The notes beneath the pieces are model-generated. The model was not told the DNA's origin. It saw only the letters and a list, made by a program, of their open reading frames with translations, and did no database searches. A stretch of DNA of 64,000 nt from the IMG/VR virus record IMGVR_UViG_2802429139_000001; one strand, 5' to 3'. Position 1 is the stretch's first letter. Each line of letters starts with the position of its first letter. The translations under genes and the position numbers were made by a program. This DNA comes from a virus. This document shows positions 2,528 to 40,511 of the stretch, piece after piece.

Positions 2528-2840
2528 ATCAACACATTTCGCCACTGTGGCGCATCTAGCGCCTGATCATTCTCCCGAATGACACACCGAGCAGAACACC
2601 GAACCCGACCAGTACGCCCAGGGTTGTCAGCAGGGTTCGCGTGGTCATCTCTTCGGCCTCGATCTCCTCCAGGTCGTCACACTCGGGACACCGGCACTTC
2701 TCCCGGTAGTGCGTGCAGTCGCAGGGGCCATCCAGCTCATGGCCAGCGCACGCGCCGGCGCGGTGGTGCGGGTCGCCAAGGTCGTGGTTTTCCAGGTCGT
2801 GGCCCGCACGCGCAGATGTCGGTGAGACCCAGATACTCGG

Positions 2841-3209: not shown

Positions 3210-3266
3210 GAAGTGTCCTCCAGTTGTCACCTTCTAGTCTAGTGACGCGGCCGGTAGTCCAAGCTA

Positions 3267-4184: not shown

Positions 4185-4388
4185 ATGGCCAAGAGGGTTT
4201 GGATCGATAACGGCGGAATGGTCACCTGCGACGAGCACTCGGGTATGTACATGCGTTTCGCCATCAAGGAGCGGCCCAGCGCGAAGCGGCACACCACACC
4301 TCTTGGTGTGTACGTCGCAGATGAGTCCGGAAAGTACGAGTGCGAAACTTGCGTCCCCTTCCACACGAGGAACCCAAATGCCCAGTAA
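4185..4388 (+). CDS. Small Zn-ribbon-like protein (67 aa; CDEH...CETC)
   Basis: AAAGGG RBS; stop overlaps start of next gene by 11 nt (translational coupling). Confidence 0.55.
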   Translation: MAKRVWIDNGGMVTCDEHSGMYMRFAIKERPSAKRHTTPLGVYVADESGKYECETCVPFHTRNPNAQ

Positions 4389-12453: not shown

Positions 12454-14199
12454 CTAGCTGAGTACGACGGCCATGGCACCCCAATTGATAGAGGTGTTTG
12501 CGAGCTTGAAAGTTGTTGTGTCAGAGGCAACATTCATAATTAGGTAAATCTGAGATGCCCCCTGGGAAAGGAACAATGCGCCACCGCCCTCGGTCCCTGT
12601 GGGAGCCGTGGAGGTGCCAAAAACCTGGAGGATCATCTGACCCGCAGTGCAGGTCACAGCCTGTGTCGGTTGCGATGAAGTACCCGAGGTCTTAGTTACG
12701 GTTCCTGACGGGGATGTGACACCGGACAGCGCGACTCCTGCCATGCGCCACCAACCGCTGCCAGTGGCCGTCACCGAAATGGTCTTGGTGCCCGCCGATC
12801 CCATGGCTGATGCGCTCCGGTAGATCTTGATGAACCCGGTGCCCACGCCTGATGTGAAGGTCTGGGTATCCAGGAGAGTCATGGCAGCGCCGGCACAAGT
12901 GACCGAAGACGGGTTGCCTGCGCGGTCTTGCACGACGGCGCAGTACACGTAATCACCTACTGCGGCATAGACATCGAAGGTGGAGGTGCCGCCGTTACTT
13001 TCTGACGTAGTGCCGTAGCTGCATCCGAGAGTCACCCCAGACTGTGTGGCGGGCTGAAGCGGGACAGCCAGCGCGGCCCAGTTTCGCGACGCGCTCAGTG
13101 AGCCCGTAAATGATGTGTCGGCGTCTGTATCTCTGACCGATTGAGTCAGGAATCCAGCGTTATCGAGATAGCGACTTGCGCCGCCCGTGAGACTCGACAG
13201 GGTGGTGCTGTTCTCGCCGGGCGTGAACGCGTGCACCGTTCTGCCGTTCAGGGGCACCGTGACTGATTGTGAGAAGGTGGTACCGATGCCTGTCGTCTGT
13301 TTGGCCGGGCCGTATCCCTGGACACCCGTGTAGGACGCGGCCACTACCTGGCCCCAACTGAATCCGGCCTTGTTGATGTTGACGGTTGCACTGCCAACGG
13401 CGACATTGCGAATCAGATACGCGCCCATGACAACACCACCGTTGAGTGCCTGGCCAAGGCAGATCATCGGCAAGTTGCTCGCACCGTACGTGGCGCTGAG
13501 GGGGCCGATGCTGCCCACCGAGTAGAAGGCCAGCACATCCGCCCCAGCGGCGGGACTGATGGTGCATGAGGTTGGCGAGCCGGTCGTTTCTGATCCGACG
13601 CCCACCGTGTCGAAAACGACCAAAGCCGTCTGTGTTATCGCGGGTGCACCGAACGCCTCCGCTGATGCAATTCCCGTAGTGGCGATGGTCATCGCGCCAC
13701 GGGTGAGTGTCGTCGCGCCGAACGCCTCGGCGCTGACGATGCTGGTCGGGGCGACGTTGCGGCTTATTTGCGGGCTGGGTACCGCCTCGGCTGATGGAAT
13801 GCCAGCGGTGACGATGACGACGTGGGAGAGCTTCGCCGTGCCGAAAGCCTCTGCCGATGGAATACCCGTGGGGGTCACCGTTACGGGTCCCACGGTGAAC
13901 ACGGGTGTGCCGAAAGCCTCTGCCGACGGAATCGCAACGGGGTTGAATGTGTTGCGCAGCAGTGCTGTACCGAAAGCCTCCCCTGACGGGATGCCGGTGG
14001 GGTACGTGAACTGCGGGAACGTGACCAGCGGTGAGCCGATCGCCTCGCCCGATGGAATGCTGGCGGGGCGCAGGTTGTAGACCAGTTTCACCAGTTCGGG
14101 TGTTCCGAACGCCTCCGCCGAAGCGATCGACGGAACCGATAGACCGAATCGTCCGTACCATTGGCCCCCTGAACTCTTGACCGGGAAGCCCTGGGGCAT
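12454..14199 (-). CDS. Minor tail protein with seven tandem ~22-aa repeats (IPSAEAFGTP...)
   Basis: Repeat units visible in translation; tail module position. Confidence 0.7.
   Translation of the reverse strand: MPQGFPVKSSGGQWYGRFGLSVPSIASAEAFGTPELVKLVYNLRPASIPSGEAIGSPLVTFPQFTYPTGIPSGEAFGTALLRNTFNPVAIPSAEAFGTPVFTVGPVTVTPTGIPSAEAFGTAKLSHVVIVTAGIPSAEAVPSPQISRNVAPTSIVSAEAFGATTLTRGAMTIATTGIASAEAFGAPAITQTALVVFDTVGVGSETTGSPTSCTISPAAGADVLAFYSVGSIGPLSATYGASNLPMICLGQALNGGVVMGAYLIRNVAVGSATVNINKAGFSWGQVVAASYTGVQGYGPAKQTTGIGTTFSQSVTVPLNGRTVHAFTPGENSTTLSSLTGGASRYLDNAGFLTQSVRDTDADTSFTGSLSASRNWAALAVPLQPATQSGVTLGCSYGTTSESNGGTSTFDVYAAVGDYVYCAVVQDRAGNPSSVTCAGAAMTLLDTQTFTSGVGTGFIKIYRSASAMGSAGTKTISVTATGSGWWRMAGVALSGVTSPSGTVTKTSGTSSQPTQAVTCTAGQMILQVFGTSTAPTGTEGGGALFLSQGASQIYLIMNVASDTTTFKLANTSINWGAMAVVLS
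13600..14080 (-). repeat. Tandem in-frame ~66-72 bp coding repeats inside the minor tail gene
   Basis: Recurring CCGAA(A/C)GCCTC(C/G)GC(T/C)GA(T/C)GG(A/C)AT units on plus strand. Confidence 0.5.
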
Positions 14200-16334
14200 C
14201 AGGCAGTCCTTATCGCGCAGAAGCCGGAACCGCCCGGACGTCCACCGTTGGCCGATCCACCCACGCCGCCCTCACCGCCGCCACCGCCACCACCAGGCGA
14301 ATTGCCATTGGTGTCCATTGCCGCCGCGAGACCGCCCACGAAGAGCCGACCAAAGAACGGGTAGTTCACCTGGGCTTCGCCAACCGGGTCGCGGTTGAAA
14401 AACCCGCCGTATGCCAGTCGGCCACCCACACCGCCGGGGATGTTCAGTAGAACCGTGACTGGACTACCTGCGAAGTGAACATTCAGCGCACCGCCTGCGC
14501 TGCCGTTCTGCTCCCTACCGGGAGCGCCTGCACCGCCAGATGGGAGGTAGATCTCCAACTCGGTGACATCCCAGGGGATGCCAACACCGCGCTCTAGACT
14601 TACCGCCGCCCACAGCCCGCGGCGTCCACCTTCACCCGGCTTGTTCCAGCCACCGTCACCGCCACCACCGCCGCCACCAGCGCTAGACCCAATGATGTAG
14701 ATGTAGCGAGCGTCGGTGGGAATCAGGAAGGAATGCGTGCCTGGTGTTGAGAAGTCTGTCCACGGTGAATCCAGAAGCGTCTCACCGAGTGCACCCCAGG
14801 CGGGCGCGGACTCGGACCGAACGATCGCGCCGGAGATAGACCCGGGAAGCCCGCTGCCTGTGTTGTTCTTCTCTGTGGGGTAGGTCGGCAATGGCTGCAC
14901 AACCTCTGTCACCTGCAGCAATGAAGGGGTGGTGAACATTTGGCCAGCAGTGCCACCAACCTGTCGTACCGCGATGAATACGGTTTCGCCGCGACCGACT
15001 CCAACACCGCCGGGGATAGCGAATGTCTGCACTTTGGATGCGGTCAGGCTCGACTTCTTATCACCGAGATTCACTGCCAGGGTGAGTGTTCCGTCTGTCT
15101 CGATCTTGTAGACGCCGACATAGCAATTGGTCATTGCCGAGCCGACGAGCCCGAACTTCAGCGCCTTATAGACCCGATCCGTGTCTGGCGTGATAGGGAT
15201 GTAAGTGATGTCATTCAGCGCGGGGGTAAACATCGACTGCGCTGAAATGATTGGGAACGAAACGTCATCGTGAGTTCCGGTCGAGATCCATCGAGGACTG
15301 CGCCGAGGCCGGATGACCATCGATGCCGCGAACTGGGCATTCGCATTGGCGTCACTGGCTACTGATGTGACATGTCCAGCAGCAGCTTTCACATCATCCG
15401 GCGTCTTGCCGATGGCGTTGCCACCAAACACACCATTCCAGAAGCTATTCCAGGTGTTTTGGATGTCTTCACCGATGTTGCTTCCACCCTCTAGGATACT
15501 TTGCAGATCCAGTGGATTGATCTTGTTTATCATGTGTGGCAACACATTTGAGAACCACACATCCCCCGAAGTCGCACCAGAATCGAGCATAAGGAGCGGC
15601 GCTGCATACGCCACTCCGCTCTCGACTTTCCAGGGCTGAGACGGCATGGCCTGCCAGATGCCGTTGGCTGCGGGGGGTTGCAATTGACCAGTGATCACGT
15701 CGGGCAACGGGTTCTTGTTCGCATCCCAGGTTGCGAAACCAACCTTGATGGGATTCGTCCCCGGTGTGGCGGTCAGGCTCGACCACATCATGCCCGCGGG
15801 TAGCTCAAGTATCTGTCCGGGAACCACATTGAATATCTCTGAGCGTGCCGACTGCTGGGTTCCGTTGGCGGTCATCTTGGCCGACCCGCCCGACTGCCAG
15901 CCGGGCTTAGTGGGGTCCCACTGGAGGAATGGGTTGCCACTCACGCTCAGCGCATTGAGGAACTGGCCAGCGCCGCTGATCAGGTCTTCGATGACATCAG
16001 AAATCCAAGAACGCGGAATCGTCCCCCGGAAGACGATCGACAGCAGATCACCGATGATGGGAATCTGAAACAGCGCGTCCAGTGCCTCCTCGGCAGACGG
16101 GAATATCGCAAACGGGTTGCCGATCAGTTTGCGAATCAAAGCCGTTAGCATCGCCAGGCTGTGTGGCATACCCGTCGGAAGGCCGCCGAAGAACCCGCCC
16201 GTGAACTGATCCAGCGCCGTCTGATAGGGCGCGTTGTACTTGTTGCGCCAGTCGATCTCGGTCATCTCCGCCCATGCGGCCAGGCTGTCGTAATTGGCCG
16301 CCTGCTCGGGGTTGAGCTGATCGGGCTGGGTCAC
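14199..16334 (-). CDS. Minor tail protein with glycine-rich C-terminus
   Basis: GGGGGGDGGW and GGGGGGGEGGVGG runs typical of actinophage minor tail proteins. Confidence 0.75.
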   Translation of the reverse strand: MTQPDQLNPEQAANYDSLAAWAEMTEIDWRNKYNAPYQTALDQFTGGFFGGLPTGMPHSLAMLTALIRKLIGNPFAIFPSAEEALDALFQIPIIGDLLSIVFRGTIPRSWISDVIEDLISGAGQFLNALSVSGNPFLQWDPTKPGWQSGGSAKMTANGTQQSARSEIFNVVPGQILELPAGMMWSSLTATPGTNPIKVGFATWDANKNPLPDVITGQLQPPAANGIWQAMPSQPWKVESGVAYAAPLLMLDSGATSGDVWFSNVLPHMINKINPLDLQSILEGGSNIGEDIQNTWNSFWNGVFGGNAIGKTPDDVKAAAGHVTSVASDANANAQFAASMVIRPRRSPRWISTGTHDDVSFPIISAQSMFTPALNDITYIPITPDTDRVYKALKFGLVGSAMTNCYVGVYKIETDGTLTLAVNLGDKKSSLTASKVQTFAIPGGVGVGRGETVFIAVRQVGGTAGQMFTTPSLLQVTEVVQPLPTYPTEKNNTGSGLPGSISGAIVRSESAPAWGALGETLLDSPWTDFSTPGTHSFLIPTDARYIYIIGSSAGGGGGGGDGGWNKPGEGGRRGLWAAVSLERGVGIPWDVTELEIYLPSGGAGAPGREQNGSAGGALNVHFAGSPVTVLLNIPGGVGGRLAYGGFFNRDPVGEAQVNYPFFGRLFVGGLAAAMDTNGNSPGGGGGGGEGGVGGSANGGRPGGSGFCAIRTA

Positions 16335-16762
16335 AGCTCGCCCGTCTCCCGCTTCTTGAGCAGGCGCTCAAGTAGTTCGGCCTGCTGTAGGCGCGACAGC
16401 TTGTTGATCGCCACGTCGGCTGGATGCTCCTCCTCGACAGGCGTTTCCAGCGGCACCCACTGCCCCGGTGAGGTCATCCAGTGCGGTCCGTTGGCCTTGG
16501 GTGGAATCCACTTCTTGACCGGTTCGCGCACCAGGCCCGAGCCGCATTCGTATAGGTGCTCAGAGACCGCCATGTTGTAGCCGATAGGCATCACGAGCTG
16601 AGCGCCGACGACACCAGGCAGCGCGACGAGCATCCATAGGAACATCTCGCGCGGGTTCTCAAGGTCGCAATTCTCGCGTGTGGGAAAGCCTTTGGAGAAC
16701 TCGTAGTCTTGAGCGTTGGCACCGTTCATCCCAAAGTTGGGATTCATCGCGGGCATCGTCAC
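16331..16762 (-). CDS. Hypothetical tail-associated protein
   Basis: Operon position. Confidence 0.5.
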   Translation of the reverse strand: MTMPAMNPNFGMNGANAQDYEFSKGFPTRENCDLENPREMFLWMLVALPGVVGAQLVMPIGYNMAVSEHLYECGSGLVREPVKKWIPPKANGPHWMTSPGQWVPLETPVEEEHPADVAINKLSRLQQAELLERLLKKRETGEL

Positions 16763-18490
16763 CTAGTACACTCCCAGATCTCGCAGGGCGGCGACGATGG
16801 ACTCGATCTTGCCCCAGGCCCGCTGTGCCGGGTCCTGTAGCGCGCGTTCGTCGCCGATGGTTAGTTGCCACTCGGGTGGGGTCTCTTCGTCCCACTTGAG
16901 GTCTATGCGCCGACACCGATCCATCTGGATTCGGTTCCGGGTGTCGTTGCGTAGAGCGATACCTACGCGATCGTCCAGGAAGAAGTGACCAAGGCCGCTG
17001 TCGCCCACCATGAACGGCGCACCGTCCACCACCGACACCTTGCAACTGATGGTTGTCTTCGTCGCCCAGAAGCCAGCGCGAAGCACCATCAGAGCTGCGA
17101 TGGTGTACGCCTTATTCGCGCCATCCTGGAAGTACTCGAAATATCGAGACCAGCCCGAATTCTGCGCCCGCTGAGTTGATTTGACGCTCCACCAGGCCAG
17201 AACCGTGTCTTCGTACAACGGCTTGACCAGCGTGTCCACAGTGCCACCCAGGGACCCGATCTGGGCGATTCCACCGAGAATGTCAAAACCTGCCTGGATC
17301 GATGCACTGATGGCCTCATTCACGCCAGGCATACTGTGACCACCGACGTTCACCTGAATACCCTTGGCGGGCGACACCGTGAATTCTGATGTCTGGATTG
17401 GTGATTGGTCACCGTCGCGGTAGATGACGTACGGCATCTCCTTGCGGGTCAGCCGCAAGCCGGGGATGAAATAGTCCTCGGGGATGTCATTATCGGCGAT
17501 CAGATCATCGGTCGAGTCAATGAAATCGTCCGCAAATTCGGCTGCGGTGCGGAACAATCCATCGAACATCGAGCCGCCATGCGATGTTCCGATCATCACG
17601 CCGGACTTATCGACGATGTCGATGACCAGGGTCCCGCTGCGCAGCTTGGCACCCGGCCACGGCTCTGGGTCGCCCTCTAGCCAGCGGCGGCACACAACGC
17701 TGTATTCGGCATCCTCCAGCATGATCTTCGCCATGTCGTGCCAGTTGGCCCAGCGCGACGACACCATGCCCCAGACAGCACCGCTGGCCATTGCCTCGAA
17801 GAATGAGGTCGGCTTGACGACGATGCTCCAGGTCGACTGGTCGAGTCCGCTGAACCAGCTCGCCAGATTCAGCGGATCATCGGGAATCGTTATGAGCGGG
17901 TTATGTTCCCGGAAGAACTGGAGGAACAGACTCATTTTCAAAATCCACGGCACGGGGCCAGCTAGGATGAAAGCCCTGGGGGCCTGAAATGCCGCCGGTA
18001 GGAATGGGTTACTCCAGACGGAGTACCATTTCAGGTTCTCGTAGTCGTGAAGCCAAGTGACGCTTAGTGTTTGATCGCCGTCCTCGTCTGACTTGAGTGT
18101 CGCCTTGTCGAGACGCCCTGACCAGCGGGCACCGCAATAGTCCACGGTGATGTGGACGTTGCGCTTCTCTCCGCGATCCATGCGGCCCTGCATGTCGTGA
18201 ATCCACTGCGCCACTTCTGACGTGAACGGGATGTCTGTCTGGCCGGGGCCAGAGTCGTTGGAGATAAACGAGAATTCAGCCCGGTACTCGGTGGCCAGGA
18301 CGTGATGTAGTTCCCATTCGCCATCGAAGATGCGAACGACCGGCGGCTGACGGCGAAGTCTGACCTCGGCGCGCTCTTGCTTGATTGTCTCGTCCCAGAT
18401 CGCCTCGCATTGCGCGCGCAGGTCTAGGTTGTCGAAGTCGAGCTGAATGGGTTCGTAGTCGAGTACGGCGGTGGCGTCGTTGACGCTCAC
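16763..18490 (-). CDS. Minor tail protein (575 aa)
   Basis: Position downstream of tape measure and Dit-like gene. Confidence 0.7.
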   Translation of the reverse strand: MSVNDATAVLDYEPIQLDFDNLDLRAQCEAIWDETIKQERAEVRLRRQPPVVRIFDGEWELHHVLATEYRAEFSFISNDSGPGQTDIPFTSEVAQWIHDMQGRMDRGEKRNVHITVDYCGARWSGRLDKATLKSDEDGDQTLSVTWLHDYENLKWYSVWSNPFLPAAFQAPRAFILAGPVPWILKMSLFLQFFREHNPLITIPDDPLNLASWFSGLDQSTWSIVVKPTSFFEAMASGAVWGMVSSRWANWHDMAKIMLEDAEYSVVCRRWLEGDPEPWPGAKLRSGTLVIDIVDKSGVMIGTSHGGSMFDGLFRTAAEFADDFIDSTDDLIADNDIPEDYFIPGLRLTRKEMPYVIYRDGDQSPIQTSEFTVSPAKGIQVNVGGHSMPGVNEAISASIQAGFDILGGIAQIGSLGGTVDTLVKPLYEDTVLAWWSVKSTQRAQNSGWSRYFEYFQDGANKAYTIAALMVLRAGFWATKTTISCKVSVVDGAPFMVGDSGLGHFFLDDRVGIALRNDTRNRIQMDRCRRIDLKWDEETPPEWQLTIGDERALQDPAQRAWGKIESIVAALRDLGVY

Positions 18491-19440
18491 TCAAGGCCCC
18501 ATGGCCGCGACCAGTGCCGCGGCTGTACCAGTTGAGCCATTGCACCTCCAGCGGGGGCGTTCTTGTAGCTGATCGGTATCTGTTGCTTCGGCGTGTACGG
18601 CGGGATGACGTGCATGAAGTGGCGGCCATTCATCAGCGGCAACATGTTGGTGTAGTGCGCATCGCGAATCATCAAGTCCTGCTTGTTCAGACTGATGACC
18701 GCGCCACCCTGTACGGCGGTGATCGGCGGGATCGACAGGACCCGAGAGCGGTAGGCGCCACCGGGTTTGCGCGCGTACTTCTTGCCGCGCCAACTGAAGT
18801 CCGGGATCTCCCACTCAGCACGCGTCAGAATCCACTTGTGCCGCATGGGCTGATCGGTCGGGTTCTCGATCTCGATGTACCCCGTCGCGTCGGTGCCGCC
18901 ATCTGAGAACTCGGTGATAACCGGGTTCTCGTACCACATGGGTTGGCCTGCACGCAGTTTCAGAATCAGATTGAGGTACTGTTGCTTGATCGGATCAAGC
19001 TCCGACTCGATGACCGGATTCTCATACATCAACACGTCGAGCATGCGCACGCCCGACTTCTCAGTCTCGACGCCGAGCGTGATCGGCTCGGGGTCGTCGT
19101 CCCACTCATCTTCTTCGTAGGCGAAGATCTTGCGGAAGTCTGATTCGTTCTCTTCCATGGTGCGACCGAGGGTTTCGATGCAATGGAATCCAAGGGTGAG
19201 GTCGCGATGCAGGACCTTCTTGCCCTTCTGCGTCGCGCCATCCTGGAACGCGCCCGCCTTCCAGGTGGTCTTGACCGGGGCGTCATAGATGCCCTGTACC
19301 TGACCCTTGGCATTCCAGACGCCCTCATGGCCTTCGACCTCGCCGTGCGTGTGGAACCGACGGCCGTCCCCGCTAATCCACATCGAAAGGATCTGTGACT
19401 CATATCGATCGGGCTGGATGATGAACGGATTGCTACTCAT
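18487..19440 (-). CDS. Minor tail protein (distal tail-like, 317 aa)
   Basis: Immediately follows tape measure. Confidence 0.7.
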   Translation of the reverse strand: MSSNPFIIQPDRYESQILSMWISGDGRRFHTHGEVEGHEGVWNAKGQVQGIYDAPVKTTWKAGAFQDGATQKGKKVLHRDLTLGFHCIETLGRTMEENESDFRKIFAYEEDEWDDDPEPITLGVETEKSGVRMLDVLMYENPVIESELDPIKQQYLNLILKLRAGQPMWYENPVITEFSDGGTDATGYIEIENPTDQPMRHKWILTRAEWEIPDFSWRGKKYARKPGGAYRSRVLSIPPITAVQGGAVISLNKQDLMIRDAHYTNMLPLMNGRHFMHVIPPYTPKQQIPISYKNAPAGGAMAQLVQPRHWSRPWGLE

Positions 19441-24962: not shown

Positions 24963-25544
24963 CTAGGAGCCCGAGCCAGTCGCGTCGGGGTCGTCGATCA
25001 GCGAGTAGACGCCGGGGTTACCAGATTCCGGCTTGTACACGTCAATGTTGACCGTGAACTTGACCAGTTGATCGTGGACATACTCGATGTCTTCGATCTC
25101 TACGATCTGGCCTTCTTCGATCACATTGAGCGCGGTCTTCCGTCCGTCGATGTAGCGCTGGATGAACGAGCTGCGGGGCAGCTGAGCATCCGACCATTCG
25201 ACGCGGTACTTGGCGTGCCCACTCGCGTAGCTCACGGTCACGTTGTCGTCACCGAAGACGGTCTTGAGCGTCACAATGTTCTGCTCGTAAATCGTGGCGG
25301 TAACGGTGCATTCGTAGTTGTCCTGGGTCGTCTTGACCGTTGACCCACCGAATGCCTTGTGCTTGGTGGTGTCACGCTTGGGGCTTACCTTGAACCCGTC
25401 GTCACCCATCCAGCCGTGGTCCTTGAATGCAGCGTCAAGCGCATCAAGGGCGTCATCGGGCAGCGGCGTCCCGAGAGGTGCACGGTAGAAGCTACCGCCG
25501 TCCTCGTGGAGAGTTGCCGCCCAAATGTTCTTGGAATTGGCCAT
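24963..25544 (-). CDS. Major tail protein (193 aa)
   Basis: Start trimmed to MANSKNIW; position upstream of chaperones. Confidence 0.65.
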   Translation of the reverse strand: MANSKNIWAATLHEDGGSFYRAPLGTPLPDDALDALDAAFKDHGWMGDDGFKVSPKRDTTKHKAFGGSTVKTTQDNYECTVTATIYEQNIVTLKTVFGDDNVTVSYASGHAKYRVEWSDAQLPRSSFIQRYIDGRKTALNVIEEGQIVEIEDIEYVHDQLVKFTVNIDVYKPESGNPGVYSLIDDPDATGSGS

Positions 25545-27350: not shown

Positions 27351-28244
27351 CTAGCTGCCCGGGGCGGCGTTGGCGCCCGTGATGCGGACGAAGCGGTTCA
27401 CGTCGCGAACGGCGAAGCCGACTTCAAACTCGACACGGACCGCGAACATGTTGCGCTGCCACAGGTTCAGCGTTTCGGCACCGTCAGTCAGGCTCGCCTG
27501 GCTGGAGATGTCGATGGACAGGCCCTCCACGTAGCCCCACATTGCGGTGGACCACTCGCCACCGAAGCCCACAGTGGACGGCGAACCGGCCTTGTAGGCG
27601 TGTGGCGTCTTGGAGACGGGGCGCGCCAGGATCTCGCGCTCAACGCGGCCCTCACGGGTAACCGAGTCGATGAAGATCGGACGGCCCATAGTGTCCTTGG
27701 CACCGAGCGCTGCGATCTCGGCCTGAGAAGTGAGAACCCAGCGCTCTACGTCGGAGCCCTCCACCGCGGCGACCGATTCCAACGCATCGACGTAGCCGTC
27801 ATAAACGTTGGTTGCGATCGAAGCGGTCGGCGCAGCCGCGAGAGTGTCGAATCCGGTACCGGGCGAGGGATCGAACCCCAGGCACGTACGGTCGAACTTC
27901 TTGGCCAGGACACGCGGAAGGCGACTGACAAGGGCGTTGTACAGGCCCGGAAGGTCGCGCTTGAACTGGTTCGAGAACGGGACGATCACGGCAAGCGTGT
28001 AGCCCTTGATGTTCTTGGAACTCAGCGATCCGCGGCTAACCGGCTTCTCGTCGGTCTCATCGACCCACTCGGCCTGGGGATCTCCCGTGATAATCGGGAT
28101 GGACAGGCCACCAGCGGGAAGATCAATCTGCGGCACGAGCTGCTGAATGATCGACGCCTGCTGGACGTTCTGCCAGATCTGCTGGGACACAGCCGGGGGC
28201 AAAAGCACCCCGTTTGTGGTCCGGTTGATGTCCACACCAGCCAT
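27351..28244 (-). CDS. Major capsid protein (HK97-fold like, 297 aa)
   Basis: Size and position after scaffold gene. Confidence 0.8.
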   Translation of the reverse strand: MAGVDINRTTNGVLLPPAVSQQIWQNVQQASIIQQLVPQIDLPAGGLSIPIITGDPQAEWVDETDEKPVSRGSLSSKNIKGYTLAVIVPFSNQFKRDLPGLYNALVSRLPRVLAKKFDRTCLGFDPSPGTGFDTLAAAPTASIATNVYDGYVDALESVAAVEGSDVERWVLTSQAEIAALGAKDTMGRPIFIDSVTREGRVEREILARPVSKTPHAYKAGSPSTVGFGGEWSTAMWGYVEGLSIDISSQASLTDGAETLNLWQRNMFAVRVEFEVGFAVRDVNRFVRITGANAAPGS

Positions 28245-29447: not shown

Positions 29448-32400
29448 TTAGACAGGTTGATCCACCACCTCCACGATCACGTCAACCTTGAACTGTGACG
29501 ACCCGGTTGACTTGCGCACTTCCAGCACCTTCATCTTCTGATTACGAGGAAGGATAACCTCGCGCTCGTGGGTTCCGACGGAGGTCAGTTGATCCATTCC
29601 ATCCGGTGTGCCTGACACGAAGATGCCGCGCTGACCGGGCTTCATCTTGTAGAGCACGCGAACCGGGTTGTGGAATGCCGGTGTGGTGGTGATTGACGTA
29701 GACAGGAAGGACTTGGACACGTACGTCTCACCCTCTAGCACCTTGAGCGCGTCGATGTCAGCGCCGAAACTGAACTTCATTCCCAGACTGTTCTCGTCGT
29801 TGAACTCGACAGCGTGCGTACCGCGGCTGAGCACGATGTGCTCCTCAAACGGATTGTGCTCGTAGAAAGCCGAATCGAGCGCCTTGGTTTTGGCTGACGG
29901 CACCTTGTCTTCGCGAGCGTGCGCGTTCATTGTGCTGTAGCCGCTGCCGGTGTACGACTTGATGGCGCTGTGCTGGTTGGATTTCCAAGCCGAGGCATTC
30001 TGTGGCGACATCAGCGAGCCGAACTGCTGCCACTCAACTGCCTTGCCGCTGGCATCGAAAACGTGCGGGTTGTCGGCAGACCCGACGGGAGCCTTGGAGT
30101 CGGCGATAACCGTCTTGCCGAGCTTGGTCAGCTCGCCAGCGGGCTGCTCATGTTCGGGTGTGTACTTCGTACCCTGTTTGATGACGACAGGTTTCGGCTG
30201 TTCTTTGATCTTGGAGTTACCCTGGGCTTTGAGCTTGTCTAGCGCCTTCTTGGCCATGTCGTCGCCGAGTGCGTCACCGTACTTGCCGAGCCATTTGGTC
30301 TGGACCCCAACGTCGTAGTAGCCCAACAGGTTCGCCAACTGATCGGTAGTGAGCGCCGCGATGCCGAACTCTTTGTCGAATTCGGGGATGGCCTCGGAGA
30401 GCTTGATACCCTTCTCGACCGCGTACGCCTTGACGGGCTGGAAGAACCCGCCAGAGCCGGCGTTCTTCAGGAACTCCTGTTCCCATTCGAGGATCTTGGC
30501 CGACTTCGTCGGATTGTTTGTAACGGGCTGCGCCACAGCTGGTGTCGCGTTACCGTTCTTCATCTGCCAGTACTGCGCGGGGGTCATCTTCGACAGTTGG
30601 GCGAAGTTGGCGGTGTCGCCCTTCTTCTTCGCCACGTACTTGGCCGACGCGAGCGCCTTGCCCGCCTTCTTCAGCACGTCCCCGTCTAGGATCGGAGTCG
30701 GCCCGGTCGGTATCGGAGACGGTGGCAGGAAATCGCCCTGGGTTATGTTCAGCCCCGGGGGCACGGTAATGACCTCACCCTTGACTTTGGTGTTCGTCAG
30801 ACGCTTCTCGACTGCCTTGATGTAATAGGAGCTCAGATCAGTTGCAAGACTGTTCTTTCGGGCAACAACTGCATCCAGGAACGCGTCAACATTGTTCGTC
30901 GCAATGTTGCCGTTCGCCTCGGCCAACAGCTTTCCCTGTTTGACTGCACCTTCGGCATAGGGCCGAAATAGATTGCGGATCTCCTTGTCTGGGATCGCTT
31001 GCAGACCTTGGATATAACTCGCTAGTTCGTCGCCCGAGGGATTGAGCAACTTACCGGGCTTGCCTTCGGCATACTGCCGAAACAGCGTGTTGTAGATGGG
31101 TTCTGGCGTGCCGTGCTTGACGTTGGGGTGGTAGTTCCAGTCCAGCGTGTCACCGCTGAAATACTTGAACGCTTGACCCTTGTCGATGCCGACGATCTCG
31201 CCGCCACCAGTGCGAATGAACTGTCCGGCGTGGCTGTCGTGGTTACCCATTAACCAGTCGAGCGCGTGATGCTTCTGGATGGTCAACAGATCGGCTTCAC
31301 TGATTGTGGACAGATCAACCCCAGATGGGAAGGCGCTCTTGCTGCCAGGAAACATGTACTGGACGGACTGGCGCTTACCGCCTACCGTCATGATGTACAT
31401 CGCTGGTGTCGTCAAGCCCGACTTCGCTTGCAGCTCAGCAGATGCCGCATCCAGCGTGACCAGGAATTGATCATTCGGATTCTTGGGACCCTTGACCAGC
31501 CACTTCTGAGACTGCGAGTCGGTGTACACCGTGGCGCCGTGCGTGCCGAGTACCTGACCGGTGCTGGCGAGCACGTTCGGTGAATCCGTCAGCTCGCCAA
31601 CGACGACCTTCGGCTTGGTCGCGGTGGATACCGTGCCGACTCCGGCGGTCGGCGCTGTCTCTGGCGTGGTGACCTTGGCGGTGGCCGTCGTCGTGGCCTT
31701 GGATGCGTTGCCGCCCTTGGATTGCGCGTACTCCGCGGGCGTCATCTTGGCCAGTGCGTTGTACTTGGCGGTGTCGCCCTTCTTTTTGGCCGCATGCTTG
31801 GCCGCCGCGAGTGCTTTAGCCGCCTTCTTGAGATCGACGTTCGCGGCCGCGTTGGCCATTGCGGTGACCTTCGCGGATGCCTTGGCTGCCGCGGCTGCCA
31901 TCTCAAGCAATGTCTGCTGTTCGTTGTAGACCTGCTCGGCCTTGAGCCACGCGACGGTATTGGCGGCGGCCTTCTTGTTGGCCACATACTTGGCCTGCGC
32001 TGCGGCCTTGGCCTTCTTCTTGGTGAAGTCCTTCTCAGCGACGAGCCACGCCGTCGCGTCGGTCTGGTACTGCTGCTCGGCCGCGAGCCATTCGGCAGTC
32101 GCCTTCTTCTTGGCGACGTACTTGGCCTGCGCTGCGGCCTTGGCCTTCTTCTTGGTGAAGTCCTTCTCAGCGACGAGCCACGTGGTCACGTCCGCCTGGT
32201 GCTGTTTCTCAGCGTCAAGCCACTTGGCGAGGTCCGCCGGTGCCGGTGACTTCTTGGTAGACATCGCTACCAGTGTTGGCCCGCTGCCTGACGCGGCCAG
32301 TTCGTTGGCCCGCATTTTCGACAGGACCGCGTTGAGCGTCGGCTTGATCTGCTCAGCTTCGAGCTGCTTGACCGTTTCGATGTACTCGGCGTCCCAGTCC

Positions 32401-32990
32401 TGGTAGTACCCCGGACGCTGGAACTTGAGCTTTCCGCGGGCGACGGCTGGCACGCAATGGCAGTTGTCATGACCCGCTTGCGCCGCGTGAGCGCTGCGGT
32501 AGACCGCTCCGCGGGTGGCCATCACTCGGCAGAACTCGCACGCTCCGGGCGACGCCAACCGCGAGTATTTGACTTTCTCGGTATCGGCGTTGCGCAGAAT
32601 CGTCGCGCGCGCGCCGTCGAACACCATGCGCTGTGCCGAACCCGTCAGCCTGGTCAGCGGATGGGCGGTGCCAGCGGCGCGGAACGCCCACTCAAGGGAG
32701 TTCATCATGCGGTCTTGCGACACCGCGTCGATCGCGGCTACCGCCTTGGGTGTGTACGGCTCATCGGGTGCCAGCTCGCCGTACCACTGATTGGCGACCT
32801 CGGATGCGGCCTCGACATAGGGCTGTACTACCTCGGGAAAGACTGCCTTGAATGCGTCCAGCAGGTCGGCAGCGGTAGCACCGTCGCTTTCGAGCTTCTT
32901 GTACAGGCCCACAAGGTCTTTGGTGGACAGCGTCGAAAGATCACCCAGGACGCTCTGGAGGGCTTGAGCCTGCTCAACCAGGCTGGCCAA
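29448..32990 (-). CDS. MuF-family minor capsid protein fused to internal repeats, a PI3/PI4-kinase-like domain and a C-terminal C3/VIP2-like ADP-ribosyltransferase domain
   Basis: N-term ACEFCRVMATRGAVY...HDNCHCVP (Phage_Mu_F); GNHDSHAGQF...VGIDKGQAF; YTGSGYSTMNAHAR, FLSTS, HEREVILP. Confidence 0.8.
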   Translation of the reverse strand: MASLVEQAQALQSVLGDLSTLSTKDLVGLYKKLESDGATAADLLDAFKAVFPEVVQPYVEAASEVANQWYGELAPDEPYTPKAVAAIDAVSQDRMMNSLEWAFRAAGTAHPLTRLTGSAQRMVFDGARATILRNADTEKVKYSRLASPGACEFCRVMATRGAVYRSAHAAQAGHDNCHCVPAVARGKLKFQRPGYYQDWDAEYIETVKQLEAEQIKPTLNAVLSKMRANELAASGSGPTLVAMSTKKSPAPADLAKWLDAEKQHQADVTTWLVAEKDFTKKKAKAAAQAKYVAKKKATAEWLAAEQQYQTDATAWLVAEKDFTKKKAKAAAQAKYVANKKAAANTVAWLKAEQVYNEQQTLLEMAAAAAKASAKVTAMANAAANVDLKKAAKALAAAKHAAKKKGDTAKYNALAKMTPAEYAQSKGGNASKATTTATAKVTTPETAPTAGVGTVSTATKPKVVVGELTDSPNVLASTGQVLGTHGATVYTDSQSQKWLVKGPKNPNDQFLVTLDAASAELQAKSGLTTPAMYIMTVGGKRQSVQYMFPGSKSAFPSGVDLSTISEADLLTIQKHHALDWLMGNHDSHAGQFIRTGGGEIVGIDKGQAFKYFSGDTLDWNYHPNVKHGTPEPIYNTLFRQYAEGKPGKLLNPSGDELASYIQGLQAIPDKEIRNLFRPYAEGAVKQGKLLAEANGNIATNNVDAFLDAVVARKNSLATDLSSYYIKAVEKRLTNTKVKGEVITVPPGLNITQGDFLPPSPIPTGPTPILDGDVLKKAGKALASAKYVAKKKGDTANFAQLSKMTPAQYWQMKNGNATPAVAQPVTNNPTKSAKILEWEQEFLKNAGSGGFFQPVKAYAVEKGIKLSEAIPEFDKEFGIAALTTDQLANLLGYYDVGVQTKWLGKYGDALGDDMAKKALDKLKAQGNSKIKEQPKPVVIKQGTKYTPEHEQPAGELTKLGKTVIADSKAPVGSADNPHVFDASGKAVEWQQFGSLMSPQNASAWKSNQHSAIKSYTGSGYSTMNAHAREDKVPSAKTKALDSAFYEHNPFEEHIVLSRGTHAVEFNDENSLGMKFSFGADIDALKVLEGETYVSKSFLSTSITTTPAFHNPVRVLYKMKPGQRGIFVSGTPDGMDQLTSVGTHEREVILPRNQKMKVLEVRKSTGSSQFKVDVIVEVVDQPV

Positions 32991-36203: not shown

Positions 36204-36692
36204 TTAGCCCGTCGACCCCAGCGGCCCGTACCGCCCTTTGGACCCGCCATCGGACTTCCCGCTCGGCTGACTGGCCTTCTTGTCGGCCTCATTGGCCGCG
36301 GCGAACTGAATGCGCAGACGAGCGCGGTCTTCCGGGGTCGCGCCGAATTTGGCAACGCGCAACCGCAGTTCGGCGGCCACTTTCACGTCGCCAGTCCAGT
36401 ACCGGGCGTGCAGTACCGCGGTGTCAAGCAGCTCCGACCAGTCCGTCGAAGTGAACTCTTTCGACAGCGGCGATTCCTTCCACATCTGCCACCACTCGAC
36501 CGTCCGCGCTGGCCACTTGAACCGCTGCGCGACGATCTCGCCCTCAACGCTGACCTCAAGGTCGAACTGCGGTAGCGGGGGCTGTTCAACAGGCTTAGCC
36601 GGGATGATGCGCATTACGTTGTCGCGACCACGGCGTGCGCCGTGTCCTGCAAGCCGATCCGGGTCCTTAGGACGCGGGCCTATTCCAGCCAT
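36204..36692 (-). CDS. Putative terminase small subunit
   Basis: Position directly upstream of TerL. Confidence 0.5.
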   Translation of the reverse strand: MAGIGPRPKDPDRLAGHGARRGRDNVMRIIPAKPVEQPPLPQFDLEVSVEGEIVAQRFKWPARTVEWWQMWKESPLSKEFTSTDWSELLDTAVLHARYWTGDVKVAAELRLRVAKFGATPEDRARLRIQFAAANEADKKASQPSGKSDGGSKGRYGPLGSTG

Positions 36693-36908
36693 GGGTGCCT
36701 GCTCTTTCTGTGCGCGTTTCGCGCGACCGTTTCGGTCAGGGTTGGCACTGAAACAGTGGCGAAACAGTGCCCTAGCTGCGGATATGCCGCATGTCTCAGC
36801 CGGGGTCGAAAAGGTCCAGACCCAGGCGGAGCCCCAGCGCCTATGCCAACCGGGGATTTCCGGGGGCCCAGGGGGCTCCCCTCCCCAGCCCCTCTGCGCC
36901 CGCGTGAG
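36693..36908. other. Probable cos/packaging region (GGCACTGAAACAGTGGCGAAACAGTGCC inverted/direct repeats, G-rich runs)
   Basis: Repeats between HNH and TerS genes. Confidence 0.35.
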
Positions 36909-37217
36909 CTATCGGTTGCGTCCTGGGTGTGGCTCTGGGTCCCGGTACCGCTTGCGGGTACGACCTTGAGCCGCTTGCTTAGCCGTCTTCTTCTTGTGGC
37001 ATGGGCTGCATACGCACTGGAGTTCGTCCACGGTGAGGGTCATGCGCCTATCGATGCCCCGTTGGGCCACACCGTCTTTGTGGTCCAGCTCTTCGTAGAC
37101 ACCCGTGCATCCGTCGTAGCGCAACTGACACTCATCGTTGTCTCTGATGCGCACAGTGCGGCGTACAGACGCCGGAACGTTGGTCCCAGTGCCTCGACCG
37201 TCACCTGCCCACACCAT
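36909..37217 (-). CDS. HNH endonuclease
   Basis: CQLRYDGC...LDHKDG...CSPCHKKK. Confidence 0.75.
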   Translation of the reverse strand: MVWAGDGRGTGTNVPASVRRTVRIRDNDECQLRYDGCTGVYEELDHKDGVAQRGIDRRMTLTVDELQCVCSPCHKKKTAKQAAQGRTRKRYRDPEPHPGRNR

Positions 37218-37218
37218 C

Positions 37219-37518
37219 TCAGTCTTGTGATGCGTCGTTGATGTCTTCGGTGACCCGTTCGAGAACCGTAACGTCGTCAACCACAACGTCATCGATCTCT
37301 ATGTCCGAGACCAAGAGCGTGAGGGTCAAGGTGTTGAGCGTGTTGGTATCGGTACTACCTAGGTGTACCGTCACCCCACCCTCGGCAATGAGCCCCGGCA
37401 CCTGCACGCCATCGACCAGTACAGTGTGGTCAGCAGTGATGTACACCCTCTGCCTGCCACCGCCTGCGAACTCGGATGATCCACCATGATCAGAGGGATA
37501 CGGATCAGCGATGTACAT
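37219..37518 (-). CDS. Hypothetical protein
   Basis: Operon position. Confidence 0.45.
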   Translation of the reverse strand: MYIADPYPSDHGGSSEFAGGGRQRVYITADHTVLVDGVQVPGLIAEGGVTVHLGSTDTNTLNTLTLTLLVSDIEIDDVVVDDVTVLERVTEDINDASQD

Positions 37519-38218
37519 GCGGTCTCCTCAGGGTCAGCTTGACCTCATCGCTTGACCAGTGCTCGCGTGTGCCAACCCGCCACCCCCTACGCGGGGTGAC
37601 CACTATGGCCCCGTCAACTATGCGTGGCCCACGGGGTACCCCATCGGAATGCTCATCGATAACCGTAGGTGTATCAGCATGATTCACCAAGCTAGGCCAG
37701 GTATATCCGATGCGATGCCCTATTGCGCTGGCCCAGTGTTCTATCGCATGGTCCTGTGCCATGAACACTGCGGGAGGCTGTGCCAGATGCTCCAGCATGC
37801 TCCGTACTAGCGGTGTACGGATGGCCACACCCACCGCGTGCAGCAGTACATGACCAGTGAGCCAGCACGGGGCGGCCGGCGTCTCCGGTGACAGCGCGCG
37901 AGCGATCGTACGAATGCTGGTCTGCGCGAACTCGGGCCTGCCCTTGCCCAGATACAGCGAGACGATCGGCGTGGGCGCAACCGCCAAAGCTGATTCCAGT
38001 TGTGCGCGAAATCCTTCGACAGGCTGCGCGTCGTCTTCAAGTACGACACTCCAGTCAGAGTCATACGCGGTCAGCATCGACCACACACGACGATGGTTAC
38101 CCTCGCAACCGAGATCGCCATCGTCGTACGCGACCACGTTCGCGTCAACAGCCCCGATCATGCCCTCGGCCTGAAGCATTCGATTCTGATGCGCAACAAC
38201 CCCAATTTGGATGTTCAT
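37505..38218 (-). CDS. Putative GT-A-like glycosyltransferase
   Basis: VLEDDAQP DxD-like motif; weak similarity only. Confidence 0.4.
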   Translation of the reverse strand: MNIQIGVVAHQNRMLQAEGMIGAVDANVVAYDDGDLGCEGNHRRVWSMLTAYDSDWSVVLEDDAQPVEGFRAQLESALAVAPTPIVSLYLGKGRPEFAQTSIRTIARALSPETPAAPCWLTGHVLLHAVGVAIRTPLVRSMLEHLAQPPAVFMAQDHAIEHWASAIGHRIGYTWPSLVNHADTPTVIDEHSDGVPRGPRIVDGAIVVTPRRGWRVGTREHWSSDEVKLTLRRPHVHR

Positions 38219-38892
38219 CGCCGCTTCGCAACCAGCATGTTGAAGTAGAACGCGATGGACTCGACAGGCACGTTCCACGCGTAGCGGGAGGGGAATAGAT
38301 CAAGCTCTGTGCGACCGCGGTAGTTGACTTCATCGGTCAACCGCTGGAAGAACTGCATCATCGTGAACTCGCCATCGCGCCTGCGCTTTTCGGGGTTCTC
38401 GTTGGCTTCCATGGACCCGTAATAGTGCTCATGGTAGGACGCGTGCGTGTCCTCCACGACGTAGATGCCACCCGGTGTGACGTGGCGAAACAGTAGCTCA
38501 AATGAGCGAATCGTCTTGGATGACAGATGACTTGCGTCATCTATGATCACATCGAATGGCCCATAGACCGCGGCTAGCTGATCTATCATCCCCTGATCAT
38601 CCTGCGAACCCTGCCAGAGCGTGATGCGCTCGTCGTCATCAGGCTGGACGTTCTTGGATTCCAGCTCGACCACAATGATCTCAGCGCCAGGATGTGGGAA
38701 GTACTCAGCCCACGTCCGGGCGCTGTTGCCACCACAGTCTGGGTCCTCGTGGCCACCCCAGCCCAGCTCCAGTAGCGTTATGGGCTTGTCGCGCAATGGC
38801 TCTAGCAGTGGCTCATAGATCGCCGTGTAATTGTGATTCAGCGACGACTTGTCTGTGCCATGCTTCTGCGCGATCTCATCGAGAGTCATCAT
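38215..38892 (-). CDS. Class I SAM-dependent (O-)methyltransferase-like protein
   Basis: LLELGWGG...DASH Rossmann-type motifs. Confidence 0.55.
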   Translation of the reverse strand: MMTLDEIAQKHGTDKSSLNHNYTAIYEPLLEPLRDKPITLLELGWGGHEDPDCGGNSARTWAEYFPHPGAEIIVVELESKNVQPDDDERITLWQGSQDDQGMIDQLAAVYGPFDVIIDDASHLSSKTIRSFELLFRHVTPGGIYVVEDTHASYHEHYYGSMEANENPEKRRRDGEFTMMQFFQRLTDEVNYRGRTELDLFPSRYAWNVPVESIAFYFNMLVAKRR

Positions 38893-40313
38893 TTGTGCTT
38901 CCAGACGCTCCAGTCGTTGCGCTCGTTGGCCTTGAATGTGGTGAGCCACTGACTGCCCCAAACGATCTGCTCACGCCATTTGGGCGAGCGTGCAACGTAA
39001 TTGAATGCCGCCATATCACCCTTGACCTTGCTCGGCCCCACGCGGAAGATCTCACGCACCATGTCGGCGCAGAAGTCCAGCAGCGTCGCGTGATCACCAC
39101 CTACGACGCCTGCGTTGAGTAGTTGAGCGCCACCATTCTCGGCTATCCACTGCTGATAAGGCGGATGATTCTGGCGCATCCAGGGGATGTCCAAGACGGT
39201 TGGCTCATGCCCGACATACAGCGCACCCTCACGCATCAAGCCCCAGGGCTCGCGCAACATCTCGACGTCGGTGCCATCGGTCATCCATACCCACGCGCTC
39301 TCGTGGTCGCGCAGATAGCGATAGCAGACTATCCAGCGTTGGAGGTATGGATTCAGACCCGACTCCACAGACGCCCCGGCGCCTCCGTCGTGCTCATAGG
39401 GTTCGTCGGCCAGAATGATCGACTTCGCACCTCTGATTGACTTGCGCCAGGCCTGAAAGTCGGCTGACACCAACTTGGAAGCGTTCTTACGCTGTGGATC
39501 AACCACTTTCGTCAACATGGTGGTGATGACTTCATTGCTCAGTTGACGGTATGGGACGAATCCGTGCGTGGTCTCGCGCAGCTCGGCCAGCAGATGATCG
39601 TTGCGCTCGATCTGCGTCTGGCGCTCACGATCGTTGACGCTGCGCTTGAATTCGGGATGCTTGTGCCAGTGCTCATCCATCGAATAGATGAACTCGGCTG
39701 AACCCGCGGCGTCCTGAAATGCATTGGTAGTCAGGCCGGTGTTGTTGATGCGAAGGCTGTACTCGACGTGCTCATGACCCCATACGCCGAAGATGGTTCG
39801 CATGCCACCACAGCGCTCGATGACACTGTGGTTCACGTAGATGAGACACCCCATTGGGTGATTGAATGCGCGCGTCCGACCGTCTTCATAGATGGTCTCC
39901 GGTGTGCCCACGGGTTTACCGTTCGCGTCAAGCGTCTTGAACAGATAGCACAGGTGGGGCTCTGGGTTATCGATGTAGAGATCTGTCCAGCCCTGTTTGA
40001 TCGGATAGCAGTCGTCATCAAGAAGAAACAGCTCGGTACAGCCAGCATCAACCAGCAGCTCAATGCACTTGTTCTTGGCCGCGGCGACGCCAGCACGCTC
40101 AGCGAATCGATAGGTGATACCTAAGCCTGGCTGCGTGGATGCGTCGTCAACGACAACCACCGTTGCACCCGGCGTAAAGCGCCGGACATGCTCAAGTGTT
40201 GTGGCTAGGACTTCGGGGCGGTTCCGCGTCGTGATCGCGACGCCGATATGCGATTGCGCCGGCGTGCCGGACGGTACGAACTCAACCCCATTGATCAGCA
40301 CTGATGGATTCAA
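38889..40313 (-). CDS. Glycosyltransferase (family-2-like N-terminal domain plus C-terminal domain)
   Basis: GVAITTRNRPEVL...VVVVDDAS; GGAGG RBS before TTG start. Confidence 0.6.
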   Translation of the reverse strand: MNPSVLINGVEFVPSGTPAQSHIGVAITTRNRPEVLATTLEHVRRFTPGATVVVVDDASTQPGLGITYRFAERAGVAAAKNKCIELLVDAGCTELFLLDDDCYPIKQGWTDLYIDNPEPHLCYLFKTLDANGKPVGTPETIYEDGRTRAFNHPMGCLIYVNHSVIERCGGMRTIFGVWGHEHVEYSLRINNTGLTTNAFQDAAGSAEFIYSMDEHWHKHPEFKRSVNDRERQTQIERNDHLLAELRETTHGFVPYRQLSNEVITTMLTKVVDPQRKNASKLVSADFQAWRKSIRGAKSIILADEPYEHDGGAGASVESGLNPYLQRWIVCYRYLRDHESAWVWMTDGTDVEMLREPWGLMREGALYVGHEPTVLDIPWMRQNHPPYQQWIAENGGAQLLNAGVVGGDHATLLDFCADMVREIFRVGPSKVKGDMAAFNYVARSPKWREQIVWGSQWLTTFKANERNDWSVWKHK

Positions 40314-40398
40314 AATCGCCTCCGACGGAAGGCCTGGACCGGATTTTGGGATGGGTCTGTCAGTTGCTCATGATACGACGTGTAGTGGACATTGTGTT

Positions 40399-40414
40399 GC
40401 CTGGTAGTTGATGG
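40399..40414. promoter_or_regulatory. Copy 2 of CCTGGTAGTTGA motif upstream of glycosyltransferase operon
   Basis: Shared motif. Confidence 0.4.
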
Positions 40415-40431
40415 CGCGCCCGACATACAAC

Positions 40432-40461
40432 GAAGGCCCCCGGAGGGGTCCGAGGGCCTTC
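40432..40461. terminator. Hairpin GAAGGCCC...GGGCCTTC between early and glycosylation modules
   Basis: 8-bp GC stem. Confidence 0.4.
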
Positions 40462-40511
40462 GTCCATCACAACAACGACACCTTTGCGGAAAGGTGCCTG
40501 ATCAGTATAGA

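Follow-up and report, generated by a model that had tools for sequence, protein, structure and literature searches.

A predicted virion O-glycosylation cassette of divergent sequence in a Mycobacterium abscessus prophage

Here we describe a block of five genes, gp44 to gp48, in a 64,000-nucleotide stretch of viral DNA (IMG/VR record IMGVR_UViG_2802429139_000001; the whole stretch is referred to below as the window), and we argue that it is probably a late-expressed, phage-encoded cassette for virion O-glycosylation of the type found in phages Che8 and Corndog. The window is the reverse complement of prophiFSIL01-1 (BK061311.1; cluster MabR, strain 1009), a prophage of Mycobacterium abscessus, with 100% identity by megablast. 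Window positions equal 62536 minus the position in BK061311.1, a conversion that was checked base for base. Gene numbers (gp43 to gp62) follow the same GenBank record, which holds 99 annotated genes, 98 of whose proteins were translated for the counts of protein termini, and in which gene 45 is labelled a glycosyltransferase, gene 46 a methyltransferase, and gene 47 a hypothetical protein.

Organization of the gp44-gp48 locus

The genes gp44 (40310..40426), gp45 (38889..40313), gp46 (38215..38892), gp47 (37505..38218), and gp48 (37219..37518) form a translationally coupled block on the minus strand, located between a cluster of stem-loops and the genes for an HNH endonuclease and the small and large terminase subunits (TerS and TerL). 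An ATGA in which a stop and a start codon overlap joins gp44 to gp45 and gp46 to gp47, and also gp45 to gp46 if the latter starts at 38892. The two candidate starts of gp46, 38892 and 38889, lie one codon apart in the same frame and either overlap or directly adjoin the stop of gp45. The overlap between gp47 and gp48 is 14 nt. The initial annotation had outlined three open reading frames (ORFs) here as an operon, two of them bearing the motifs VVVVDDAS and EDD. These ORFs are indeed present on the minus strand as GenBank genes 45 to 47, the motifs occur in gp45 and gp47, respectively, and the overlaps are those expected of an operon. The methyltransferase start that it placed at 38892 is in the correct frame, one codon from the GenBank start at 38889. 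The three enzymes are coupled as it described, but gp44 and gp48, which it did not mention, also belong to the block; consequently its placement of the module immediately upstream of HNH-TerS holds in that the module adjoins the packaging genes, but not strictly, because gp48 sits between gp47 and the HNH gene. The module is kept in all five MabR genomes.

On the 5' side, an 85-nt spacer (40427..40511, minus strand) containing three stem-loops separates gp44 from gp43, a helix-turn-helix gene of the early region. One of these stem-loops, with a 16-bp GC stem at approximately 40430-40463, is the hairpin that had been noted at 40432..40461 as marking the early-gene boundary. The folded spacer RNA has a minimum free energy of -48.7 kcal/mol (z = -5.27), and none of 200 shuffled sequences was as stable, such that the spacer is probably a transcriptional boundary. 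A role of the hairpin as terminator is at most putative, since it was passed over by a consensus scan for terminators, which returned 3 terminators against 2.8 expected in shuffled sequence, i.e. without enrichment. Scans of the window for promoters and terminators gave nothing above shuffled sequence, and scans for tandem repeats and tRNAs found none.

The first gene of the block, gp44, encodes a basic 38-residue ORF (isoelectric point 10.8) whose stop overlaps the gp45 start; it is kept in the related prophages McProf (94%) and FVLQ01-1 (69%), and a family search gave no match. At the other end, gp48 encodes an acidic 99-residue ORF (isoelectric point 4.05), of which the N-terminal 56 residues or so are conserved across MabR genomes; it has a weak PHROG 2099 match and its membership in the module is uncertain. 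On the 3' side follow the genes for HNH, TerS, TerL, and portal. The HNH endonuclease gp49 (36909..37217, minus strand), a packaging accessory, matches PHROG 333 (E 3e-19) and is 30% identical to Che8 gp112, while TerS (gp50; 36204..36692, minus strand; Pfam Terminase_7, E 2e-29) opens the packaging and structural genes.

Predicted activities of gp45, gp46, and gp47

The key enzyme would be gp47, a predicted 237-residue GT25-like glycosyltransferase of GT-A fold, which by sequence is a clear phage-encoded homologue of Che8 gp110 (47% identity, E 2e-58, BLASTP) and Corndog gp38 (37% identity, E 8e-38, tblastn). A 2025 structural-clustering paper that cites Freeman 2023 reports both of these transferases as essential for capsid glycosylation, lists glycosylated proteins identified in Che8, Corndog, and Myrna, and gives the capsid and tail tube as the targets in Che8 (PMC12363180). 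The gp47 protein matches PHROG 854 (glucosyltransferase, E 2e-68), and it scores 18.1 bits against the Pfam GT25 profile (PF01755; cut-off 24), whereas its homologue Che8 gp110 scores 32.3, above the cut-off. A DXD-type motif, VLEDDA.P, is invariant in a nine-member alignment of the family and reads ...VVLEDDAQPV... in gp47. Homologues were found in 735 phage records, mostly F-, C-, and O-type mycobacteriophages together with some Gordonia and enterobacterial phages. We propose gp47 as the candidate initiating protein O-glycosyltransferase. The key transferase thus carries a "hypothetical protein" label that can now be corrected in public annotation; this label is found in four MabR records (BK061309-BK061312), and the match listing for BK061308 shows the same pattern.

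The gp45 sequence, which contains ...GATVVVVDDAS..., matches PHROG 1579 (glycosyltransferase, E 1e-159) and scores 21.7 bits against Pfam GT2 (cut-off 23.3). An AlphaFold model built with 48 homologues (predicted local distance difference test score 92) contains two alpha/beta domains. The N-terminal domain (residues 21-256; 39546..40253, minus strand) has a GT-A Rossmann-like fold resembling GT2 enzymes and beta4GalT7, with an acidic DXD-type motif and invariant D56 and D57 (VVVDD) and D99/D101. The C-terminal domain (residues 257-474; 38892..39545, minus strand) is modelled as a second GT-A domain, GT6/GT8-like, with invariant D346 and D349 (TDGTD); a profile search of this domain against the PDB gave no match. 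The former is probably an inverting glycosyltransferase and the latter probably a GT6/GT8-like retaining transferase. With two confidently modelled GT-A domains gp45 is predicted to be bifunctional, and for this reason the two glycosyltransferase genes counted initially correspond to three glycosyltransferase domains. The protein is 44-45% identical over 99% of its length to a transferase of approximately 475 residues in many other F1 phages, and approximately 39% identical to enterobacterial prophage proteins.

Predicted to be a sugar O-methyltransferase dependent on S-adenosylmethionine (SAM) and metal, gp46 (224 or 225 residues) matches PHROG 21658 (methyltransferase, E 5e-37) and scores 24.6 bits against Pfam Methyltransf_24 (cut-off 26.3). 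In phmmer searches of PDB sequences it matched MycE (3SSM, E 5e-29) and the demethylmacrocin O-methyltransferase TylE (8IA9, E 1e-21). Its LELGWGG, IIDDASH, and VVED align with VLEIGVGG, VIDDGSH, and VIED of MycE, and the SAM-binding glycine motif, DDxSH, and ED are conserved. In MycE, D275, H278, E303, and D304 reportedly act as the metal ligands and catalytic base (structure of Akey and colleagues, 2011). The substrate of both MycE and TylE is a 6-deoxyhexose that a macrolide already carries, and they methylate one of its hydroxyls (2'-O, SAM/Mg-dependent); their catalytic domain is homologous to gp46 with the motifs kept. The N-terminal auxiliary domain of MycE (approximately 180 residues, for tetramerization and substrate binding) is absent from gp46: of the 419 residues in the MycE chain, the alignment with gp46 (224-residue form) covers 184-339 alone; gp46 is therefore a relative that probably works like MycE rather than a MycE orthologue, and its substrate would be a protein-linked glycan instead of a macrolide sugar. 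Membership in the MycE/TylE family supports the methylated sugar decoration that had been suggested on the strength of a methyltransferase partner. Such a partner is not new to these cassettes, because Che8 gp108 joins a GT2 domain and a Methyltransf_24/TylF domain in a single protein.

Homologues of gp46 with approximately 220 residues are common in metagenomes, and 12 of them match gp45 homologues in the size of the longest contig, which suggests recurrent pairing of transferase and methyltransferase across metagenomes; in one contig the pairing was confirmed directly. Proteins of the gp46 type are rare in sequenced phages, where 16 records contain one (five MabR, Wildcat, Cosmo and related mycobacteriophages, Omega, one cyanophage, and two metagenomic). 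In the cluster J phage Omega (11321-13248) a gp46-like methyltransferase with 38% identity lies just after the presumed capsid gene and directly follows a 461-residue gene labelled glycosyltransferase in a RefSeq record. The first 35 kb of Omega yielded no gp47 homologue, and its presumed capsid protein ends in ...PTFA; this phage is uninformative here.

Gene order and comparison with known cassettes

The class of system to which the module belongs was already described in 2023 (Freeman et al., Cell Host Microbe 31:1216), and the module is a sequence-divergent member with a different combination of parts. At the right end of the Che8 genome (cluster F1) the order is gp107 (53 residues), gp108, gp109, gp110, gp111 (98 residues), and gp112 (HNH), followed past the cos site by gp1 (TerS) and gp2 (TerL). 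The window order gp44-gp45-gp46-gp47-gp48-HNH-TerS-TerL matches Che8 107 to 112 and then 1 to 2. The two cassettes share a gp110-type GT25-like transferase, a position and order before HNH-TerS-TerL, a sugar O-methyltransferase of the Methyltransf_24 clan, and capsid and tail-tube proteins that end in Gly-Ser. They differ in that Che8 gp108 (GT2 plus TylF-like) and gp109 (GT2) have no sequence counterpart in the window, which has the two-domain gp45 and a stand-alone MycE/TylE-like methyltransferase in their place; furthermore, the window derives from a prophage of an M. abscessus host and has capsid and tail proteins that show no relation to their Che8 counterparts. In the window, the conserved enzyme of gp110 type is thus accompanied by a predicted bifunctional gp45 and a separate O-methyltransferase resembling MycE, and the additional transferase domains stand in the same operon, both GT-A domains of gp45 being coupled to gp46 and gp47. 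Pairwise sequence comparison led us to reject gp45 as the counterpart of Che8 gp108 (a marginal 37-residue match, E 0.01), gp46 as the counterpart of gp109, and gp48 as the counterpart of gp111, with which it has no similarity despite the corresponding position; likewise gp44 has no detectable similarity to gp107.

Related arrangements were found in several other phages. In prophiGD17-2, an unrelated M. abscessus prophage, transferase genes ending in a gp47-type gene precede HNH-TerS-TerL, and in the F2-like phage Soul22 the cassette stands at the right genome end while the left end begins with HNH and TerS. The gp45-gp46-gp47 triad recurs at 43%, 53%, and 45% identity, in a related gene order, on a metagenomic phage contig of 54 kb; a related order is also seen in the F1 phage SG4. 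The F1 cassettes of gp45 type (SG4 gp102-gp105, Spartacus gp108) combine a full-length gp45 homologue with a gp47-type transferase, stand at the right-hand end of the genome, ahead of the cos site and terminase, and occur with capsid and tail proteins ending in Gly-Ser. They differ from the window in the middle gene: SG4 gp103 is annotated as a Ser/Thr kinase and is followed by a small ORF, where the window has a methyltransferase. That the gene with the kinase label (SG4 2747-3220) fills the methyltransferase slot suggests that the middle cassette gene is exchangeable. In Corndog (cluster O) the gp47 homologue gp38 lies inside the structural operon, between the presumed portal and the annotated capsid protease, unlike the window module.

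Outside the mycobacteriophages, the HK97-like Cronobacter phage ENT39118 (HQ201307, 11418-21318) encodes a gp45 homologue (37.5%) and a gp47 homologue (32.6%) directly upstream of HNH-TerS-TerL, and Gly-Ser is the C-terminus of its capsid, tail, and adaptor proteins alike. Phage HK97 itself (NC_002167, 4028-7437) has no transferases, and its capsid protein, 96% identical to that of ENT39118, and its adaptor end in Gly-Ser. Either virion glycosylation reaches phages of Enterobacteriaceae, or the Gly-Ser motif is inherited regardless. The capsid glycosylation system of chlorovirus PBCV-1 (A64R and partners) shows a likeness of fold only, at 10% identity, and is an analogy rather than a case of membership; PBCV-1 is a eukaryotic giant virus with a different linkage chemistry. 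Literature on Jabs, Douge, the cryo-electron microscopy of Claus/Corndog, and the announcement of Rita yielded nothing useful on glycosylation, and the module is not a subject of the publication on cluster MabR.

Capsid and tail-tube termini as predicted acceptors

A C-terminal Gly-Ser occurs in exactly two of the 98 prophage proteins, namely the major capsid protein gp56 (27351..28244, minus strand; ending ...ITGANAAPGS, with the last eight codons at 27354-27377) and the major tail (tube) protein gp62 (24963..25544, minus strand; ending ...DDPDATGSGS, with the last ten codons at 24966-24995), which are the predicted acceptors. Glycans were reportedly located at the C-termini of capsid and tail-tube subunits by Freeman and colleagues in 2023. 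The chance of picking exactly this pair is 1 in 4753, and the expectation of a Gly-Ser end from composition is 0.0047 per protein. In four MabR genomes the terminal Gly-Ser is invariant while the residues that precede it vary (capsid AAPGS, TGAGS, and AAAGS; tail GSGS and GTGS). The Che8 capsid and tail proteins, neither of which is homologous to the window proteins, end in ...FNKTGS and ...YSDGS.

Among other phages that carry the transferases, both capsid and tail proteins end in Gly-Ser in SG4, prophiGD17-2, ENT39118, and the IMG/VR contigs L033 and L095. The capsid protein of metagenomic contig L018 does so as well (tail protein not reached), Corndog has Gly-Ser on the capsid and Asp-Ser on the tail tube, and Soul22 has Glu-Ser on both. 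Two relatives without a homologue of gp45, gp46, or gp47 served as controls, and neither has a terminal serine on its capsid or tail protein: Conspiracy (capsid protein 33% identical) ends in EEE and LFK, respectively, and Rhodococcus phage ReT1v-1 (TerS 64%, TerL 50%, and tail protein 43% identical) in TTP and TGP (...VTTGP). Since these transferase-free relatives have tails of similar length that end differently, the idea of a C-terminal extension was softened. A further control, HK97, has a capsid protein ending in ...SSGS, an adaptor ending in ...EEGS, and a tail protein ending in ...TIS; because it has Gly-Ser in the absence of transferases, the terminal Gly-Ser is suggestive but not sufficient, and its use as a diagnostic of glycosylation was rejected. 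For the association between transferase and termini, 80 loci with the gp47 family were fetched from IMG/VR, of which only about four were new and informative, since most come from linear F1 isolates in which the cassette stands at the end of the genome and is not followed by structural genes.

In contig L095 (IMGVR_UViG_3300044647_001572, 13034-18882), from an uncultivated phage with a gp47 homologue, four consecutive structural proteins, apparently portal, capsid, adaptor, and tail tube as judged by size, order, and one homology match, end in Gly-Ser (...GSLGS, ...TGAGS, ...VEAGS, and ...YSAGS), and this end is also found on the portal of L018, as on the adaptor of ENT39118. The set of targets may accordingly be broader in some phages.

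Proposed function and alternative explanations

The homology of gp47, the gene order shared with Che8, the Gly-Ser termini, and the silence of the McProf module in lysogeny (below) all support a virion glycosylation module, as initially annotated, and its most likely activity is to decorate the terminal serine of the capsid and tail-tube proteins with methylated sugars. In lytic growth, the enzymes would work as soluble proteins in the host cytoplasm, drawing on host nucleotide-sugars and SAM. The first sugar would be placed by gp47 on the C-terminal serine of gp56 (...PGS) and gp62 (...GSGS), and the two catalytic domains of gp45 would lengthen the glycan, the N-terminal GT2-like domain probably with inversion and the C-terminal GT6/GT8-like domain probably with retention. 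A sugar hydroxyl would then be methylated by gp46, probably after sugar transfer, and in the end head and tail would carry hundreds of short glycans, partly O-methylated, which by analogy with Che8 may shield the particle from antibodies. Such coats are known in related phages, where antibody recognition is blunted. It is important to note that we infer the glycan coat, the sugars, the methylated hydroxyl, the acceptor serine, the order of action, and the biological effect. A wider generalization is conceivable but somewhat doubtful: a bare C-terminal Gly-Ser-COOH (or, more loosely, a terminal serine) might be a portable tag on unrelated virion proteins that is read by the gp47/gp110 family, with tagging extending beyond mycobacteriophages and with the MabR methyltransferase giving O-methylated (deoxy)hexose coats that resemble the methylated glycopeptidolipid sugars of the host.

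Several points weigh against virion glycosylation, in addition to the termini of HK97. Glycans on MabR particles are predicted rather than directly evidenced. The Pfam scores of gp45, gp46, and gp47 all fall just below the curated cut-offs, gp45 is not homologous to Che8 gp108, and in the literature we found no paper that tests a gp45-type cassette experimentally. Lastly, the authors of the McProf study state that this prophage appears to express genes only through lysogenic infection (PMC8191103), and for that reason MabR virions may be hard to obtain.

The same RNA-seq study bears on the alternative that the enzymes modify the host envelope (glycopeptidolipid or another surface glycoconjugate) and so bring about lysogenic conversion, superinfection exclusion, or receptor masking during lytic growth, which we consider unlikely. 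The McProf genes expressed in lysogeny comprise gp1-3, gp48-50, gp56, and right-arm genes (16 genes), and the module genes gp43-45 are not among them (PMC8191103), a silence that argues against conversion of the host surface. In the window the module lies on the lytic strand, between the early genes and terminase, rather than in the lysogeny-expressed right arm. The alternative gains from the element being a prophage of a pathogen, and M. abscessus surface glycopeptidolipids carry O-methylated deoxyhexoses; some gp46 homologues have been named rhamnosyl (3'-)O-methyltransferase by the Joint Genome Institute, and the PDB relatives of gp46 methylate 6-deoxyhexoses. The top NCBIfam match of gp45 is also to MftF, a mycobacterial small-molecule glycosyltransferase, but with 29 bits against a cut-off of 280, and the closest characterized homologues of the module act on virion proteins. 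Envelope modification would moreover leave unexplained why only capsid and tail proteins end in Gly-Ser, and it finds no flippase or GtrA/GtrC-like partner here, nor any membrane-spanning segment in gp44 to gp48 (maximum Kyte-Doolittle hydropathy over 19 residues at most 1.46, against at least 1.96 in annotated membrane proteins). Given the absence of membrane segments and of lysogenic expression of the McProf module, serotype conversion of the Gtr type was rejected. As a separate observation, McProf has three reverse-strand, lysogeny-expressed genes, gp48-50 (14154-15757; two with membrane domains), between HNH and TerS (PMC8191103), a site that in the window (36693-36908) is only a 216-bp gap.

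It is a little less probable still that the cassette acts on other proteins, whether of the host or minor virion components, or is an inactive remnant, with Gly-Ser termini that are coincidental or inherited. Across the MabR genomes the catalytic motifs are intact at 70-96% protein identity and there are no frameshifts, which argues against a remnant, and the invariance of the terminal Gly-Ser next to varying residues argues against coincidence, although HK97 has such termini without transferases. That the portal or adaptor also ends in Gly-Ser in some transferase-bearing phages would fit a different set of targets, against which stand the capsid and tail tube reported as the targets in Che8 (PMC12363180). 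The base composition could also favor this explanation: positions 38001-40000 have the lowest G+C content of the window (0.573 in a 2-kb profile) and the module genes range over 0.56-0.60, versus 0.61-0.65 in flanking genes, as would fit a recent mobile cassette; the values are consistent with horizontal exchange or recent acquisition.

Glycosylation of phage DNA (a hypermodified base, T4- or TET-like) as an evasion of restriction is very improbable and was rejected, since the gp45 matches that hint at it (Pfam TAGT, E 6e-4, 20.2 bits against a cut-off of 27.5; PHROG 842, beta-glucosyl-HMC alpha-glucosyltransferase, E 5e-4) do not reach the threshold and extend over no more than a generic nucleotide-sugar-binding region of the N-terminal domain (residues 21-104), the annotation of the 99 prophage genes includes no hydroxymethylase, TET/JBP, or other gene for base hypermodification, the matches to virion-glycosylating cassettes are far stronger, and we know of no place for a sugar O-methyltransferase in DNA glucosylation pathways. 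Membership in a defence system was likewise not supported, the only match being a weak, generic methyltransferase match to mad2 (E 2e-4).

Implications and additional observations

Compassionate-use therapy with mycobacteriophages is directed mainly at M. abscessus, and neutralizing antibodies are a recognized cause of treatment failure (PMC10568470). If virion glycosylation holds, a shield of glycans would influence how immunogenic the particles of M. abscessus prophages are, and gp45 to gp47 together with a Gly-Ser tail would constitute a compact gene set transferable into therapeutic phages. It would also provide a simple rule, to which HK97 is a counter-example, whereby a gp110-family gene and a terminal serine on both capsid and tail tube predict a glycosylated phage.

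Elsewhere in the prophage, gp53 (29448-32990) is annotated as a minor capsid protein of 1180 residues with a fused ADP-ribosyltransferase domain, and gp84 (4378-5400) as an ADP-ribosyl glycohydrolase. These two proteins are possibly a second protein-modification pair, unrelated to the glycosylation module.

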